Source of the DNA: Eledone cirrhosa
Lineage: Eukaryota
DNA: 64,000 bases
Direction: 5' to 3'
NCBI GenBank assembly: GCA_964016885.1
Contig: OZ024757.1
Span: 27,776,001 to 27,840,000, forward strand
Shown: positions 22,251 through 64,000 of the stretch, piece by piece
Numbering within the stretch: the first letter of the stretch is position 1
Layout: each line of letters opens with the position of its first letter
Made by a program: the position numbers and the translations under genes
Notes under the pieces: model-generated
Told to the model about the DNA's origin: nothing
Seen by the model: the letters and a program-made list of their open reading frames with translations, nothing else
The model's database searches: none

Positions 22251-23013
22251 GGGAGGTAGTTCATAGCTCCGCTCCAATGACAAACCTATCTCCCCAATGT
22301 GAGAGTATCTATGTAGTCCTTTAACCCTTTAGCATTTAAACCGGCTGCATCCGGCCAGAATTCTCTCACCCCTTTCTGTTCAAACCGGCTGTAACTGGCC
22401 ACTCATACTATTGTTAACGCATTGTTCTCAAAATAAATAACATCAAAATCTCATACGATATTATGTGAGATAAAGCCTAATGTAAATGCTAGAGGGTTAA
22501 TGGGAAGAAAGACACATTCGATAATGTAGTTCTAGATACATTAGTGACTGAAGAAAAGCTATGAAGAGTTATAGCTGCAGAAATAAAGGGTCATGAGTAA
22601 AGAGATCAGATGCACTTGTCATCTCTTTCTGATCTGGATGTCATAAACAAGAAAACAAACAAACATTGTACAAACTCCCACTAAAAAAAAGTTATGCCAG
22701 ATTTGAAAAAAAACTAAGTACTGTGTTCAACATGATCAGCACAATCCTATCAAGGTGGGGCCCCAGAGTGGCCAGAGCCCTAATGACTGACAGCATTAAT
22801 AGAATAAATGTATATATAAATTAATCAAATATCATATATATATATATATGTGTGTGTGATGTGTATGTGTCAGGTTCAATCGAGGGTAACCAAAGTAAGT
22901 AAGGTACTCAATACATTAGTAGAGTGTATACAATAAATATTATATAGAAACGGTTTTTCTGATGATTTCCTTCGACTGAAACAGTTCTAGTCCTGTAGAA
23001 GCCATTTCTATAT

Positions 23014-23048
<35 letters not shown>

Positions 23049-23602
23049 TGAGAGAAATAGCTTCTACAGGACTAGATGTATTTCATTCAAAGGAAATCAT
23101 CACTTAAATAAGGATTTCTAATTTAGGCACGAGGCCAATAATTTGTTGAGAAGGGGATTATATCATCCCCAGTAGATTAACAACCAAGTTGATTTCAGCA
23201 GGATTTGAACTCGGAATGTCAAGAGCTGGAATATATACTGCTAAGCATTGTCCGATGCTTTAACAACTGTGCTAATCTCCTACCTTAAACCATACAATAA
23301 TAATTAATACTCAAAACATTCAATCATATTATTTATTAACAAACAACACAAAATTTTTTTTATTAAGAATTAAAATAATCTCTGCACACACACACCCACA
23401 CACAATATCTATAATTCTTATATTTATAAATATATATATTTGTGTGTGTGTATTATATATATATAATGATTTTCTCGCCCGGAAATGATGTATAAGCTGG
23501 TATGATCAGTAGGATAATGTTAAACGAGCGTAAGTAGAGCAAATAGGGTGTGTATGTGTATGTGTGTGTGTGTGTATATAAATATATATATATATATATA
23601 TA

Positions 23603-24282
23603 CGGGAAAAAAATGAAACAAAATTTCATTTCTCACTCTTAGTACGGCTGTTACTTAAATATAAGTATGTATACGTACATACATATATGTATACAGACGT
23701 ACAGTAGTATGTATATATATATACATACATGCACACATATATATATGTACGTATGAATTTACCGAACATTTATTATAATGCTTGGTGTGTTTGTAAACAA
23801 ACATCCCGAATTAAGCCGTACAGTGTTTAGCAACCATCGTTGCTCTTTTGTTCAACACTGACAAAGGAAAGATGTACTAGTTTCAAGCTTATTAGCTATC
23901 GTCAGCAACGTATACCTTCCTGCCAGGTGATTGAACGTCTGAAAGTATATACTTTCCTTATGCATATTAACGGCTGAGCAGCCTAATTTGCATATTGAGT
24001 GAGTTAATCGGCTGGGCGCACCGAAAACGATAAACGGAAAAAATGAAACAAAATTTCATTTCTCACTCTTAGTACGGCTGAAACTAGTACATCGAAGAGC
24101 AACGATGGTTGCTAAACACTGTACGGCTTAATTTGGGATGTTTGTTTACAAACACACCGAGCATTATAATAAATGTTCGGTAAATCCATACGTACATATA
24201 TATATGTGTACATGTATGTATATATATATACATACTACTGTACGTCTGTATACATATATGTATGTACGTATACATACTTATA
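23603..24282 (-). mobile_element. Non-autonomous Penelope/retrozyme-like element with hammerhead motif, terminal direct repeat and 5' inversion
   Basis: Direct repeat 23603-23650 / 24035-24080 (period 430); inverted repeat 23660-23847 / 24095-24282; hammerhead at 23864-23921(-); (TA)n on both sides. Confidence 0.7.
23864..23921 (-). ncRNA. Minimal type I hammerhead ribozyme motif
   Basis: Minus strand: aggaag gtatac gttg CTGACGA t-agct-aata-agct-t GAAA CTAG TA catc tttcct. The core is intact, stem II has 4 bp, stem III is minimal with a palindromic CUAG, the cleavage triplet is GUA and stem I is bulged. Confidence 0.7.
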
Positions 24283-25872
24283 TATATATATATATAAATA
24301 CATATATATATATATATAGGTGTACTTAATACATGTAAGAGTTTATTTAGTCACGTGTAGTTGGTGATTCATTACATTGCTACGCTGGGCTTCCCATCTC
24401 AATGTGCATCCATTAAGGTGACAAAACAAATTCACAGAAGTGAGAAATTTTGTGTTAGGGATAGGGTGAATCATCGGTTTTGAATGAATCAATATATATT
24501 ATTCTATTACCACCTACAAGAGCAGTGGGTTGGCAGATTCTTTAGAGCATTGGACACAACGTTTTGTGGTATTTAGTTACACCCCTTTACATCCTGAGTT
24601 CAAATATTGTCAAGCTTTACTTTGCTTTATATCTTTCCTGGGTCGATAAAATTATTCCAAATTCTTGATTTTCAAAATTGATTGAAAATCAGAGGCAATG
24701 TGTTTGATTAGAAATATGGTAAAGAAAGGGTTGATGACTGCCAATTTGGCATCTAATAGTATTTCTAATTTAGAAACAAAGCCATCAATTAGTGAGAAGG
24801 GGAAAGCCAAATAAATTGACCCCCAGTACTTGAGAGGTACTTTATTTTATTGACCACAGAAGGACGAAAGGTAAAGTTGATCTCAGCTGGATTTTAACTC
24901 AGATGGTATTGTAAAGAGTCTAAACAAATACAACAAAGTATTCTCTCAGAAACTCTAATGATTCTGTGAATTCACTGCCCCTTTGCCGCCTATAATAATG
25001 ACGTCATAATTATGAAACAAGAAAAAACAAGCCAAACAAATAGTAGTATTTACATGTAGGTATCAAGATTAAAAATGAATTACGCCAGATCTATCTTACC
25101 AGCTGTAATATTGATAAAGCAACCAAGGCATTAAATCAGAGATTATGAAAGAGGTGAAACCAAAGAGAAGAATTATATCAAACCACCAATAACAAAAAAT
25201 CCTACATTGGCAACTTTTCAATAAATAATACTAATAATGATAATAATGATGGTGATGATGATAATAATAATAAAAATAATGATGATGATGATGATAATGA
25301 AACAAATTAATGGGTTAGCAGCAATTTGGAGATATTAAGTTGCCAGCATAACTCATAACTTCTATGATGCGAGCTAATGTAGAAGCTTATACATGGTTGC
25401 CTCAACCTGCTGGAAATAGTAGCCAAATCTCTTGCATTACACCCTACAACAACAACAAATGTTTTAAGGCCATTTTCTCTGCCATAGTAGAAGTTAACCT
25501 TGCAGATCCTATGACGGGTTTCATACTCATCATGGGGTCCTAATTAAAGCAAGATAAGAGCAAAAGATGGACATGACTGGAAAATCGTTGATTAGCGCTA
25601 TACTAGAACTGCAGCCCTGATTAAAACACCCAAGAGAACTCCACTGAGGTCAATTAAACAAAGCTATGCAATTGCAAGAGAACTCCTATGAGATGCAGCC
25701 TCATATGAGGTCAGCTAAACAAACGTATGTAAATGTGATCTGCAACAAGAATAATTTTCTGGTTGAAATAGACATTGTGATGAAAATAGTTCTAAAGAGG
25801 ATTCATAAGCTTCAAAGAACCTCTTTTTCCTCAGGCCTGCTGTTTAACTACAGTTTTATAATGTGAAACAGG

Positions 25873-42425: not shown

Positions 42426-43216
42426 TTTTTAGACATACCTCCATTTTACATATATTTACAATGTACCAATATACTGTATTGTTGTTAGCCCTGGATATCA
42501 ACTCTGATCTAATAAAGGTATAATCAAAGTCGTTCCAGGCATGATCATCCCTCCCCCGACTATATATTTGTACTACATTTATTTAATTTGTCTTCTCTTT
42601 CTTAAGACAAGTTGAGAATATTTGGCTATTATTTCTAGCATGTCTGACGACCACGTTAGTTCTACTCAATCATGATTGACTAAGAGAACTGAGAGTAGCA
42701 GTAGTTAATATATTCTTATCAACTATGTGCTGTAGGTTAGCTCTTGGCAATGGGTCTCTGTGAATGAAAGGTATTCCGACCATGACCATTTCAGCTTTAT
42801 CAAGCACTGTCTTGCCACGAGTGATAGCGGGGTTAAGGTGTTGGAATAGCCAAGCACCCTTCTTACGAGCATCACCTGATATGTCAGTGAAAAGAACCTC
42901 GATATCAATGGCCCACCTCTCCCATTACTAAATGAAATTACAGTTAGAGGAGGAAGGCCTAGAGGGAATTAGTAGCAGGCATTAACTGCCAGGAATGTGA
43001 CAAAATAAATCCAAATACACAGTCTTAAGTGATGCCACAAAGAACTGAAATGATAATGTGCATAGCTAGAAAAATCAATAAATGGACCCCCCCCCTTTCC
43101 ATTCACACCTATGGATTGTCACACCACAATAGATCGATATTCGTCTCCTAGCTGGATTTTTTTTTCTTTTTGATAATGTGTGAATCTTTCTCTTTTTTTT
43201 TTTTTTATTGATCTGA

Positions 43217-43658
43217 ATCATCATCATCATCATTTAACCGCCGCTTTTCCATGCTTGCAAGGGTTGGGCGGGTCCTATTCAGCACAGCATCTCTCCACTT
43301 GTCACAGTCCTTCGTCATCTCCTCGGTGAGTTTTAGCGATCTGAGGTCTGCTCTCACCACCTCCGCCCATGTTTTGCGTGGCCTACCTTTACTGTGTCTT
43401 CCTTCTACTGGGATTTCTTGGCACTTCTTTACCCAGCGGTCATCCTCCATGAGCATCACATGTCCATACCATCTCGGCCTTCTCTCCTGCACACCACAAC
43501 TTATCCCTCTTATACACAGTTTCTTTCTCAACTCATCTATGCTTGGTCGTTCACGCACATTGACATTGCACATCCAACGGATCATACTTGCTTCATTTCT
43601 CTCCAGCCGTTGCATATCCTCTGCAGTTGCTGCCCATGTCTCACTACCATGCAGCATA
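43217..43658 (-). mobile_element. 5'-truncated RTE LINE 3' end with (GAT)n tail
   Basis: ORF 43205..43681(-) reads MLHGSETW...RWYGHV...GRPRKTW...KWR; 42 of 54 aa are identical to the C-terminal part of the 61-64 kb element. It ends in ccttgcaagcatggaaaagcggcggttaaat(gat)n. Confidence 0.9.
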
Positions 43659-43964
43659 AAGAAAAAAATATTTAATCCCATTTCCTAAATATTATTATAA
43701 TGGTTCTGAAGTGCCGGGTTTCATATGTGAATAATTAATATGTTCATGGAAACCAGACTGTATTTAGCAAGAATAATATTGCTGTTGCTGCTACTACTAC
43801 AGCAGCACTGTCCTCTGTCCAATCTCTCTCTCTCTCTTCCTATCTATATATATATACATATATATTGTAGTGGGACAAAATACACCCCCCGTCCCACTAC
43901 CCCCACCCCATCCACACCACCCCCTTAAATGTGAAGTTATGTTGGTACCACAACATCCAGTCCG

Positions 43965-60461: not shown

Positions 60462-60999
60462 AGATAAGTTTTCCTTCATGTTTATCCACTTTGCTTCAAT
60501 TATTTCTATGATGGACTCATGTAAACCGTAAAGTACAATCCTTCTCTCCATTTCCACGCTCAATTCCGTACACAGTCCAAACAAACATCCAATCTCGCAA
60601 AATCCGAAATCTGTATTTTTTTGTTATCTATTTAAGGTTTAAATACGGTGTTTTTGTCGTATTGAACAGAACAAATCTTGCAGTTTTGCTTTTTGTTAAA
60701 TCGCTTGTTAAACATTCATAACCTTCCAGCTAGCTACCCCACACCCCTCCCTCCCGCCCCCACACGCCACCATACCCCTCCCTCCCGCCCCCACACGCCA
60801 CCATACTTAATACGTGGACCAATCATAAGCCAGAGCCCCCCCCCCCGCATCACCACCATTATTATAAGCCAGAGCCACCCACCCCCACCCCCACGCATCA
60901 CCATTATTATTATTACGAGGACCAAATCATAAGCCAGAGGCCTATACTATCGCTTGCCCGGTTGCCTTCGATATATGATGGATGGATGGATGGATGGAT

Positions 61000-63900
61000 G
61001 GACGGACGGACTGCGGAATCCTTGGAGAGTGGAAGGGAGAGAAAAATCTGGACGCCCAGAGCGAAAATGCCAATGCTAAAGTCAAATTCACCTCGTGGAC
61101 GAGAATGCGAGCACTCTTCTTTGTTTCGCCCGCGGATGGCTAACATAACCCCATCTCCCCCCGCCCCACACCACCCCCACCCTCCAAACGCGATCCAAAA
61201 CTTCAGAGTTGGTACCATAAATGTAGGCACCCTAAAGGGTCGCGCTAACGAGGTTGTAGAAATGCTTGAACGTAAGGAGGTCGATGTTTGTTGTATTCAA
61301 GAGACCAGGTGGAGGGGTGGGTCTGCTAGATTCATTGAGGGTAAAAAACGATGTTATAAGCTTTTCTGGGTGGGAAACGACGATGGGCTGGGTGGAGTAG
61401 GAATCATGGTAGCAGAAAAGTGGGCAGATAAGATAATAGACGTAAATAGAGTGAACGACAGAATAATTAAAATAAGACTTGTCCTCAATAGAACTACGGT
61501 GACAGTAATATCTGCGTACGCACCCCAATCCGGACTGCCCGGCACTATAAAAGACAGATTCTATGAGACACTGTTGCTAACTACCTCCCAAATATCCGAC
61601 AGTGACTATATAATTATTGCAGGCGACCTAAATGGTCACGTTGGACAACATTGTGACGGCTATGACGAAATCCATGGAGGCTATGGGTTTGGTACTAGAA
61701 ATGAGGAAGGCTCCAGAATTCTGGAATACTGTGATGCAAATAACCTAACTATCTGTAACACTAACTTCAAAAAACGTGACAATCACCTGATTACCTATAG
61801 ATCCGGGGAACACACAAGCCAGGTAGATTATATCCTTACCAGAAGACGTGACAGAGTGTCTGTTGTAAACACTAAATCCCTCCCCCATGAAGAATGCACC
61901 TCCCAACATAGACTGATAATTAGCGACCTCATAGTCAGGACGAGACGCACCCGACAGCAGAAGAGGACTATCCTCAGGAGGAAAATATGGAAACTAAAAG
62001 ACCCCACAGCCAGAAATAAATTTCAAAGCATATTACTTGATGCTTTCGACAGTAAGGAAGAGCATCTAGAATCGGACAATATAGAGGGACAGTGGAAATT
62101 TCTGAAAGCTAACCTGCTGTTGGCGACAGACGAAGTCTGTGGCTGGAGCAGGCCTGTAGGCAGGAGGAGAGTAACATGGTGGTGGAACAGTAAGGTGGAG
62201 GGGTCAATTAAGGCCAAAAAGCAGGCTTGGAAAGTATGGCGGGATGGGGGAAGTAGAGTAGACTATCAAGTGGCCAGGAGGGAAGCTAGGAGAGAAGTGT
62301 ACTTAGCAAGAAGGGAAGCTGAGGAAAGAAAGTTCAAGCATGTTCTACAACGCGATGACCAAAAACGTGAGGTGTTCAGGATTGCCAGGCAATGCGTCAA
62401 GGAAAACCGTGATATTGTCGGGGAGAAGTGTGTACTTAACGATGATGGCATACTTGCCATCACCGACACTGATAAGAAGGTAGCTTGGAAGTGTCACTAT
62501 GAAAGGCTACTAAATGAGGAGAATAAATGGGAGAAAGACAGTCTCCCCCATATCGACCCGATAGAGGGACCAGCAGTGTTAGTCGAGGGGAGTATAATAA
62601 GTAAGGCAATCAAGGATATGAAGACTGGTAAGGCGGCTGGGCCTTCGGAAATAGTTGCTGAGATGCTGAAGGCATCTGGCACGGTGGGACACACCATGGT
62701 CACCCGCATAGTTAACCAAGTCGTACAGAATGGGGTTGTTCCGAAGGACTGGCATAGCAGCATCATCGTTAACTGTTATAAGGGTAAAGGAGACGCCCTA
62801 GATAGGAGTAACTATAGAGGCATTAAATTAATCGACCAGGTCATGAAGGTCACGGAAAAAGTAATAGCGCAACTAATCAGAGAGAGAATTGATCTAGATG
62901 AAATGCAGTTCGGGTTTGTGTCAGGCAAAAGCACCACAGACGCTCTTTTCATAGTACGACAACTACAGGAGAAGTACCTAGCTAAAGGTAAACCCCTCTA
63001 CTTAGCTTTTGTCGACCTGGAGAAAGCCTTCGACAGAGTCCCCCGCTCCATTATCTGGTGGGCTCTTAGAAAACTAGGCGTTGACGAATGGCTTGTGAGG
63101 GCTATACAAGCCATGTATAAAGAAACAGTCAGCAAGGTTAGAATTAACAACGAATATAGTGAAGAGTTTAGCGTAAAAGTTGGCGTCCATCAGGGCTCTG
63201 TTCTCAGCCCCCTACTATTTATTATTGCCCTTCAGGCTATAACAGAGGAGTTCAAGACAGGCTGCCCATGGGAACTCCTATACGCAGACGACCTGACACT
63301 CATAGCGGAATCAATGGCCGAGCTAGAGAAGAAATTCCAAACATGGAAGCACGGCCTAGAGTCAAAAGGACTTAAAATTAACCTGGCTAAGACCAAAGTT
63401 CTAGTTTGTAGGAAAGAAAACAAGGCGGCGGTCCCTTCTGGGAAATGGTCGTGCTCGGTATGTAGGAAAGGCGTAGGTAGAAACTCCATCTTATGTCCTA
63501 AATGCAAAGTATGGGTGCATAAAAGATGTAGTGGGATCACAGGTAAGCTAACTAAGAACATAGACTTTACATGTGGCCGGTGTTCTGGTGCAATAAGTAG
63601 CAGCAAGTGCCCACAAAATACTAGCTCTTTCAATTGCGCAGAGGGTTTTATAGAAATAGTGGACAGCTTCCGTTACCTGGGCGATAAAATCAGCAGTGGG
63701 GGAGGGTGCTCTGAAAGTACTGTAGCTAGAGTCAGAACTGGTTGGAAAAAGTTCAGAGAGCTTATACCACTATTAGCTGCTAAAGGGTTCTCCCTAAAAA
63801 TGAAAGGCAGGTTGTACGATGCCTGCATACGAACAGCAATGTTGCATGGTAGTGAGACCTGGGCATTGTGTGCAGAGGATATACGCAGACTAGAGAGGAA

Positions 63901-64000
63901 CGAAGCTTGCATGCTCCGCTGGATGTGTAACAGTAATATACGTGAACGGCAAAGCATAAACGAACTAAGGAAAAAATTAGAGATAAGAGGGATCAGATGT
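61000..64000 (+). mobile_element. Apparently intact, young RTE LINE (5' boundary approximate)
   Basis: Uninterrupted ORF, higher GC and retained CpG relative to the flanks; begins just after a (GGAT)n/(GGAC)n tract at about 60976-61011. Confidence 0.9.
61067..64000 (+). CDS. RTE-clade non-LTR retrotransposon polyprotein (APE endonuclease + reverse transcriptase with PHD-like insertion), 3' end beyond the window
   Basis: Manual translation gives a stop-free frame from 60734 to the window end, with in-frame ATGs at 60986, 61067 and 61136 (start uncertain). APE motifs: GTINVGTL, DVCCIQETRW, ISAYAP, AGDLNGHVG, SQVDYIL, SQHRLII. RT motifs: NYRGIKL, QFGF, AFVDLEKAFDRV, GVHQGSVLSPLLF, LLYADDL (YADD at 63281-63292), FRYLG, and the RTE-type MLHGSETW. 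Confidence 0.95.
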   Translation, partial: MPMLKSNSPRGRECEHSSLFRPRMANITPSPPAPHHPHPPNAIQNFRVGTINVGTLKGRANEVVEMLERKEVDVCCIQETRWRGGSARFIEGKKRCYKLFWVGNDDGLGGVGIMVAEKWADKIIDVNRVNDRIIKIRLVLNRTTVTVISAYAPQSGLPGTIKDRFYETLLLTTSQISDSDYIIIAGDLNGHVGQHCDGYDEIHGGYGFGTRNEEGSRILEYCDANNLTICNTNFKKRDNHLITYRSGEHTSQVDYILTRRRDRVSVVNTKSLPHEECTSQHRLIISDLIVRTRRTRQQKRTILRRKIWKLKDPTARNKFQSILLDAFDSKEEHLESDNIEGQWKFLKANLLLATDEVCGWSRPVGRRRVTWWWNSKVEGSIKAKKQAWKVWRDGGSRVDYQVARREARREVYLARREAEERKFKHVLQRDDQKREVFRIARQCVKENRDIVGEKCVLNDDGILAITDTDKKVAWKCHYERLLNEENKWEKDSLPHIDPIEGPAVLVEGSIISKAIKDMKTGKAAGPSEIVAEMLKASGTVGHTMVTRIVNQVVQNGVVPKDWHSSIIVNCYKGKGDALDRSNYRGIKLIDQVMKVTEKVIAQLIRERIDLDEMQFGFVSGKSTTDALFIVRQLQEKYLAKGKPLYLAFVDLEKAFDRVPRSIIWWALRKLGVDEWLVRAIQAMYKETVSKVRINNEYSEEFSVKVGVHQGSVLSPLLFIIALQAITEEFKTGCPWELLYADDLTLIAESMAELEKKFQTWKHGLESKGLKINLAKTKVLVCRKENKAAVPSGKWSCSVCRKGVGRNSILCPKCKVWVHKRCSGITGKLTKNIDFTCGRCSGAISSSKCPQNTSSFNCAEGFIEIVDSFRYLGDKISSGGGCSESTVARVRTGWKKFRELIPLLAAKGFSLKMKGRLYDACIRTAMLHGSETWALCAEDIRRLERNEACMLRWMCNSNIRERQSINELRKKLEIRGIRC

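Follow-up and report, generated by a model that had tools for sequence, protein, structure and literature searches.

A 430-nt non-coding hammerhead-motif repeat at an Eledone cirrhosa locus with features of a Penelope-like insertion

The window analyzed here, a stretch of 64,000 nt from Eledone cirrhosa, is AT-rich (~34% GC) and rich in microsatellites, and contains a 430-bp unit that reads on the minus strand (23651..24080). A repeat search places terminal direct repeats of 96% identity at 23608-23655 and 24038-24085, a spacing of 430; in the alignment the exact match stops at 23650/24080 and the left copy has two additional bases in a G/A run, giving a repeat of 46-48 bp. The 3' tail (23603..23650, minus strand) is a repeat of the unit's initial 46 nt; it folds into a hairpin and is likely the first start of reverse transcription, and the 5' copy of the same sequence (24035..24080, minus strand) forms the 5' boundary of the forward copy. 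Next to the tail lies a degenerate TA/CA-rich 3' segment (23656..23752, minus strand) that is present in both arms of the locus and predicted to form a long hairpin. Stop-free frames in the unit reach at most 67 aa, with no coding remnant. No second copy of the unit's unique part was found in the 64-kb window, and no tandem array is present at the locus.

A second, inverted and 5'-truncated copy (24079..24283, plus strand) is joined head-to-head to the 5' side of the forward copy with a 2-nt overlap at 24079-24080. It corresponds to 23885-23659 minus 22 nt: the long inverted arms (23656-23847 and 24095-24286, 192 nt) are 97% complementary, an additional 16-nt piece (24079-24094) equals minus-strand 23885-23870, and the nucleotides between these pieces (23869-23848) are missing. 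The arm starts one base ahead of the hammerhead GAAA described below and stops near 24283, equivalent to 23659, without a tail. Four differences inside the long match and one at 23870 bring the substitutions between the arms to five, besides the 22-nt gap; one more mismatch in the alignment falls outside the arm. The whole is flanked by (TA)n sequences (23575..23602 and 24291..24318, the latter preceded by seven extra TA bases) that match at 27 of 28 positions and share an identical interruption of the TA run. Pure (TA)n matches the 28-bp flank with one mismatch at many places (221 matches), and we therefore consider the pair only a probable target-site duplication. The two 3' ends of the element, at 23603 and 23659, are 56 nt apart and point outwards inside this probable duplication. 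These results bear out a preliminary description made from the letters alone, which had reported the 430-bp unit with its terminal repeat, the inverted copy at its 5' side and the lack of an ORF in a (TA)n setting.

The forward copy carries a hammerhead motif at 23865..23921 on the minus strand, with the core at 23905-23899, GAAA at 23884-23881, a 6-nt palindrome at 23881-23876 and GUA at 23877-23875; the cut site is predicted between 23875 and 23874. Stem II is formed by a U.U at its base and 4 bp closed by a 4-nt loop, and stem I by a 5-bp distal helix, a 6-nt bulge and a proximal helix of five positions, two of which are mismatched at this locus. The core is complete (CUGANGA, GAAA and UH, with three stems), as had been claimed, but the accompanying word "minimal" does not apply, since the motif is canonical by the definitions given in PMC4209133; likewise, "intact" is true of the core elements but not of the proximal stem I of this copy. 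The minimal hammerhead of Penelope-like elements (PLEs), min-HHR, is also of type I, with palindromic positions around stem III and a predicted dimer, but its described helix II is 7-8 bp long, an additional base separates positions 9 and 10.1, G10.1-C11.1 is present and helix III is nearly or wholly lacking (PMC4209133). In the motif here helix II has 4 bp with a U.U, the additional base is absent and stem I is bulged. Assignment to min-HHR was rejected on the helix II and the absence of an extra base at 9/10.1. Canonical metazoan hammerheads have a helix II of 4 bp and a short palindromic helix III (PMC4209133), and on its sequence the motif is a canonical metazoan type I hammerhead with a palindromic stem III rather than one of the minimal PLE type. 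Going by text descriptions and not by sequence, axolotl HHR_Amex2 likewise has a U.U at the base of helix II, and HHR_Amex1 a very short helix III with a palindromic loop; the monomers of HHR_Amex1 and HHR_Amex2 cut weakly (6% and 22%) and their dimers better (PMC7229834).

Searches recovered this motif to differing degrees. A stem-aware hammerhead descriptor, composed after the motif had been seen, finds one site in the window, the hammerhead alone, and any match in only 2 of 200 shuffles, whereas a loose core pattern is at chance level in the window (9 matches versus 4.9 expected). Rfam returned no match at the gathering threshold in the 64 kb, and at E<=10 over 1.1 kb no hammerhead among 96 sub-threshold matches, most of them to microRNA models on TA-rich DNA; on a 106-nt stretch Hammerhead_HH9 was the sole hammerhead (15.4 bits, E 0.15). 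Folded as a circle, the unit reaches -133.3 kcal/mol versus -88.4 +/- 5.3 kcal/mol for 100 shuffles; its fold also exceeds shuffles when the microsatellite part is removed (z -5.5), and the minus strand folds better than the plus strand (-118.6). On its own, the ribozyme stretch does not exceed shuffles in folding (z -0.1 to -1.4), and forcing the hammerhead fold within the unit costs 6.7 kcal/mol. For this copy the active fold is at +3.9 kcal/mol as a monomer and at -9.0 kcal/mol as a dimer, versus a cofold minimum of -27.0 kcal/mol, and is not energetically favored in these models. The ribozyme of this copy is likely weak, and the hammerhead would likely cut only as a dimer, in tandem transcripts.

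The family to which the unit belongs was followed by comparing four sequencing runs with 23750-24110, the stretch that excludes the TA-rich segment; some of the element's words are present in 14 of 17 runs. None of the 17 is on record as RNA, which carries no information about expression, and ten other rows with such words (organisms C-K and two more runs of sample S1) form no part of the evidence. Matches were found in 11,029 contigs of run X1, in 42,595 of 12,467,656 raw RAD reads of run X15 (0.34%), in 106 contigs of run X11 (from which we draw no claim about RNA) and in 3,374 contigs of run X4, which comes from a second organism, organism B. Summed depth in X1, which is not copy number, is 0.4-2.2 million over the unit and 5.7 past the junction. 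We infer a copy number on the order of ten thousand or more, and the earlier expectation of a multi-copy, (TA)n-associated non-coding family is upheld, with relatives in organism B. Depth is unbroken from the tail through the ribozyme in all four runs (23750-24080 within the unit) and at most 5% of matching contig sequence continues into unlike sequence, suggesting that the short unit is the family norm. One X1 contig (record 8) covers 23933-24085 in one piece and then runs on for 94 further letters, which fits a direct partial tandem, although two ribozymes are not displayed; the longest matching X1 contigs reach 14 kb. Among the 24 of 854 loose ends listed, the TA-rich segment precedes the tail in other copies, followed by (TA)n, and one loose end (40 contigs) shows that other copies also stop near the equivalent of 24030, adjoining (TA)n. 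Sub-families are seen in X15 and X11, one with a divergent segment before 23846 (9,938 reads) and one with an 8-bp deletion at 23937 (2,733 reads). A loose end before 23873 in X4 (15 contigs, consensus agreement 0.6) has a tail-like 9-mer no more than ~25 nt from the 3' side of the ribozyme, which may point to a shorter sub-family that lacks the TA-rich segment. Pile-ups of read ends at 23809, 23985/23988 and 24055 were rejected as biology, as they coincide with AATT sites, the RAD cut sites.

Among the variants listed, sequence variation within the family spares the ribozyme core. Variants were judged on the 40 of 146 rows listed, which give 36 positions inside the unit once 24082, outside it, is dropped. 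None of these 36 positions falls in the 26 positions of core, stem II and stem III (P 0.044, with N7 and loop II excluded as free); adding the proximal stem I brings two of them into the motif, which is not significant (P 0.22). Both of the stem I variants restore pairing: the variant at 23870, which restores a pair, makes up 98% (X1), 96% (X15) and 85% (X4) of depth, and that at 23908, which gives a Watson-Crick or wobble pair, 42% (X1), 65% (X15) and 98% (X4). One stem I mismatch of this copy is thus absent from ~96-98% of host depth. The remaining listed motif variants lie at N7 (23901) and loop II (23891). These restorations are one-sided, and no two-sided change inside the ribozyme occurs among the 40 of 146 rows. 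The inverted arm has the majority base at 23870 and at 23783, suggesting that the forward copy likely decayed after inserting. A two-sided change is found in a small hairpin (23829..23844, minus strand), where 23829 A>G and 23844 T>C account for 68% and 90% of X4 depth and for 13% and 26% of X1 depth; the one-sided state is commoner in the direction that gives a G.U on the minus strand. The two tail copies of the locus share a minority base at the 24050 position, the other base being present in 74-92% of host depth. Depth in organism B peaks at the ribozyme, at 23971-23996 and at the tail.

Inverted junctions like the one at this locus recur in other copies. Opposite-strand joints, whose orientation was assumed to be identical to that of this locus, account for 7 of the 15 joints listed (95 in all); they recur in raw reads and in one contig. 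In each of the seven, one side lies at 24075-24085, where the forward copy has its 5' boundary; detection there is favored because most joints come from RAD reads that start at AATT and an AATT lies at 24052-24055 (23-33 nt from the boundary), and RAD reads cannot separate a whole forward unit from a tail-only stub. The opposite side falls at 23792, 23863, 23889, 23896, 23905, 23916 and 23926. Counting this locus, seven of eight arm starts lie within 23860-23926 (P 1.6e-4 versus uniform, the interval having been picked afterwards) and five of eight inside the motif proper (P 0.008). The arm extends past the predicted cut site in six of the eight, none stops within 10 nt of that site, and all eight stop at or before 23926. 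The inversion had been described as beginning exactly at the ribozyme; in the seven other joints its start varies over 23792-23926 and is never at the cut site, and what survives of that claim is that seven of eight arms begin in or beside the ribozyme.

This architecture resembles that described for endonuclease-bearing PLEs (Penelope/Poseidon, Neptune, Hydra, Adineta Pen2a and Anolis PAc). In common with their insertions the locus has a tail at one end and a head-to-head inverted 5'-truncated copy, an AT-rich or (TA)n target with a flanking duplication (here probable), a type I hammerhead upstream of the tail and two 3' ends that bound the tail (PMC8557442, PMC3846280, PMC11167929). A tail, an inverted 5'-truncated copy and microsatellite targets together are the described PLE footprint (PMC8557442, PMC3846280), and the earlier reading of the terminal repeat and inversion as a PLE-like insertion agrees with the standard Penelope "tail" and inverted pLTR. 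Unlike autonomous PLEs, which have an ORF for reverse transcriptase and GIY-YIG endonuclease, the unit is only 430 nt long and has no ORF, and the locus has no direct upstream pLTR. The tail is 46-48 nt here versus 30-40 in PLEs, and the distance from the predicted cut site to the tail end ~270 nt versus ~90 nt in PAc.

The unit also has the properties of animal non-LTR retrozymes such as those of coral, mussel, axolotl and Xenopus: it is non-coding, has a canonical type I hammerhead and many copies, lies near the top of their 150-450-bp size range and has a GC content below 50% (PMC7229834; bioRxiv 10.64898/2026.07.22.740005). It further shares with them a highly self-paired predicted RNA, a long duplication, a very high copy number and an inferred dependence on PLEs, and likely belongs among them. 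Retrozymes have been argued to be non-autonomous PLE derivatives, and cleavage was reported in only one of nine dimers tested (bioRxiv 10.64898/2026.07.22.740005). The same source describes the active retrozyme as a tandem with at least two hammerheads, whereas this locus consists of a monomer, a tail and an inverted arm.

Taken together, we favor a reading, to which we give a probability of about 0.6, in which the locus is one insertion of an abundant hammerhead-motif repeat, a non-autonomous PLE mini-element of the retrozyme class that was copied in trans, with an uncut RNA of more than unit length as template. A partial-tandem master copy would give rise to this RNA, with its 5' end just upstream of the first hammerhead, at the equivalent of ~23921-23930. 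A helper protein (PLE reverse transcriptase/GIY-YIG endonuclease) would nick both strands of a (TA)n target ~28 bp apart; one 3' end would prime at the tail end, so that the tail and one unit (~476 nt) are copied up to the tail start, and the other would prime ~9 nt upstream of the tail start and be extended in the direction of the RNA 5' end until it stops within or close to the ribozyme. The two cDNAs would then be joined head-to-head via the 2-nt overlap, and hammerhead cleavage would be dispensable for the insertion step. The outward direction of both 3' ends into the duplicated target would fit one priming event per target strand. Known PLE biochemistry is consistent with this scheme: AT-rich DNA is nicked and extended on both of its strands by a purified PLE protein, which begins reverse transcription inside the RNA, at two sites delimiting the tail, and inserts RNA that has not been cut (PMC11167929), and pLTR sequences suffice for mobilization in trans (PMC3846280). 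Penelope elements are described as abundant in coleoid cephalopods (PMC8967140); within this window no Pfam match to a PLE reverse transcriptase or GIY-YIG domain was found in the 71 of 211 frames scanned (frames of at least 55 aa). For palindromic inverted junctions, self-priming on an antisense template has been proposed (PMC3846280), and while the junction of this locus is not palindromic, that route could also have operated here.

The second arm requires template upstream of the tail start, and thus an RNA longer than the unit, a circular RNA or a second molecule. The preliminary description had suggested a circular or tandem RNA read for slightly more than one turn; the part of this that holds is a template longer than one unit, while a circle could serve but is not required, as the one Penelope system available in vitro uses uncut RNA and begins reverse transcription at internal sites. 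A template in the form of a 430-nt circle, cut by the hammerhead and re-ligated as in a classical animal retrozyme and copied for ~1.1 turns, is in our view rather unlikely. It would agree with the strong fold of the unit, the better folding of the minus strand and the conservation of the ribozyme across copies, and the minority base common to both tail copies is what one monomer read twice should give; coral, mussel and axolotl are reported to have abundant retrozyme circles (PMC7229834), and for PLEs it has been proposed that circles are copied beyond unit length (PMC4209133). A circle has no 5' end, yet none of the eight arms goes beyond 23926 (a limit that could also result from stalling at the ribozyme hairpin), the locus has no tandem array, and a PLE needed no cleavage in vitro (PMC11167929). 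The limit of arm starts near 23926 lies 25 nt below a TATA-like hexamer, and for this reason we prefer the linear uncut RNA. That hexamer (minus strand 23946..23951, within a 16-bp palindrome and 25-30 nt upstream of the top of stem I) is one we take to be TATA-like, such hexamers being common in this DNA; a second motif (minus strand 23986..23993), presumably octamer-like and one of four such sites in the window, lies in a block with good conservation in organism B, under the X4 depth peak at 23971-23996. That the two motifs form a promoter upstream of the ribozyme is speculative.

Two further explanations dispense with an independent short family or with retrotransposition itself. The locus could be merely what 5' truncation left of an autonomous PLE, its 3' end (pLTR), or the product of a single internal deletion, and 5' truncation is indeed usual for PLE copies (PMC8557442, PMC4209133); some matching X1 contigs are long, reaching 14 kb, and only 24 of 854 loose ends are listed. 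We nevertheless consider this improbable, as the tail sequence recurs just 430 bp upstream, depth is unbroken from tail to ribozyme in all four runs, matches in the contig runs seldom (at most 5%) continue into unlike sequence, record 8 of X1 spans 23933-24085 in one piece and the unit has no coding remnant. More improbable still is an origin of the arm and terminal repeat in DNA-level rearrangement, by fold-back repair in TA-rich DNA or a satellite-like mis-assembly, with the hammerhead incidental. Hairpin-prone TA-rich DNA does lie at both ends, and the low Rfam score and shuffle-like folding of the ribozyme stretch would suit an incidental motif, but like joints occur in seven other copies, from raw reads and one contig; the arms differ by five substitutions and a 22-nt gap, a flanking duplication is present, and variants spare the core and restore stems.

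Within the preferred reading of an uncut linear template, a more specific proposal can be framed for the whole family. A retrozyme-class family of some ten thousand or more copies, probably of octopods, might spread mainly as dispersed monomers by twin priming. A single uncut RNA would be copied by a pair of PLE reverse transcriptases, one beginning at each of the two tail boundaries; the first enzyme would halt at the point where its partner had set out, and the partner would continue as far as a transcription start fixed by an internal octamer/TATA promoter immediately upstream of the ribozyme. In this full form we judge the proposal unlikely, and literature listings yielded no paper applying twin priming to PLEs. 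If it were true, the family's thousands of junctions would serve as an in vivo map of the PLE RNA template and of the second-strand step, and a 430-nt circular RNA, abundant and so far undescribed, would arise from the conserved hammerhead. The formation of inverted PLE ends and the role of PLE hammerheads are questions that the literature leaves open (PMC8557442, PMC11167929), and a short, young and very abundant non-coding family would allow circular templates to be tested against uncut linear ones, by means of thousands of naturally occurring junctions and an RNA substrate of small size. It would also carry the link between retrozymes and PLEs, for which phylogeny has so far given evidence in Xenopus alone, into a further animal lineage. 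No published octopus or cephalopod hammerhead or retrozyme family was found, and the family is new as far as searched; Repbase, Dfam, most subscription journals and supplements lay outside that search and may list it, and elements of this type have been described before. Neither metagenome contigs, scanned for the ribozyme and the tail as exact patterns, nor viral contigs, scanned likewise for the ribozyme, contained a match.

Several other features are present in the window. The interval 22960-23102 has 50-nt inverted arms (88%) around (TA)n(GA)n and is MITE-like; its left arm holds a second hammerhead-core-like match (22959-22992), which was rejected as a hammerhead because it has no stems. 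The flanking repeats in the window may resemble octopus SINEs. A 159-aa frame at 43205-43684 (minus strand) has no Pfam match and presumably resembles the end of an RTE-type LINE ORF. At 60734-64000 (plus strand) a 1089-aa open frame runs off the end of the window, with an APE-type endonuclease, RVT_1 and a PHD finger after the reverse transcriptase; alone among the 71 of 211 frames scanned it gave real Pfam matches, and it is apparently an intact LINE and not a PLE.
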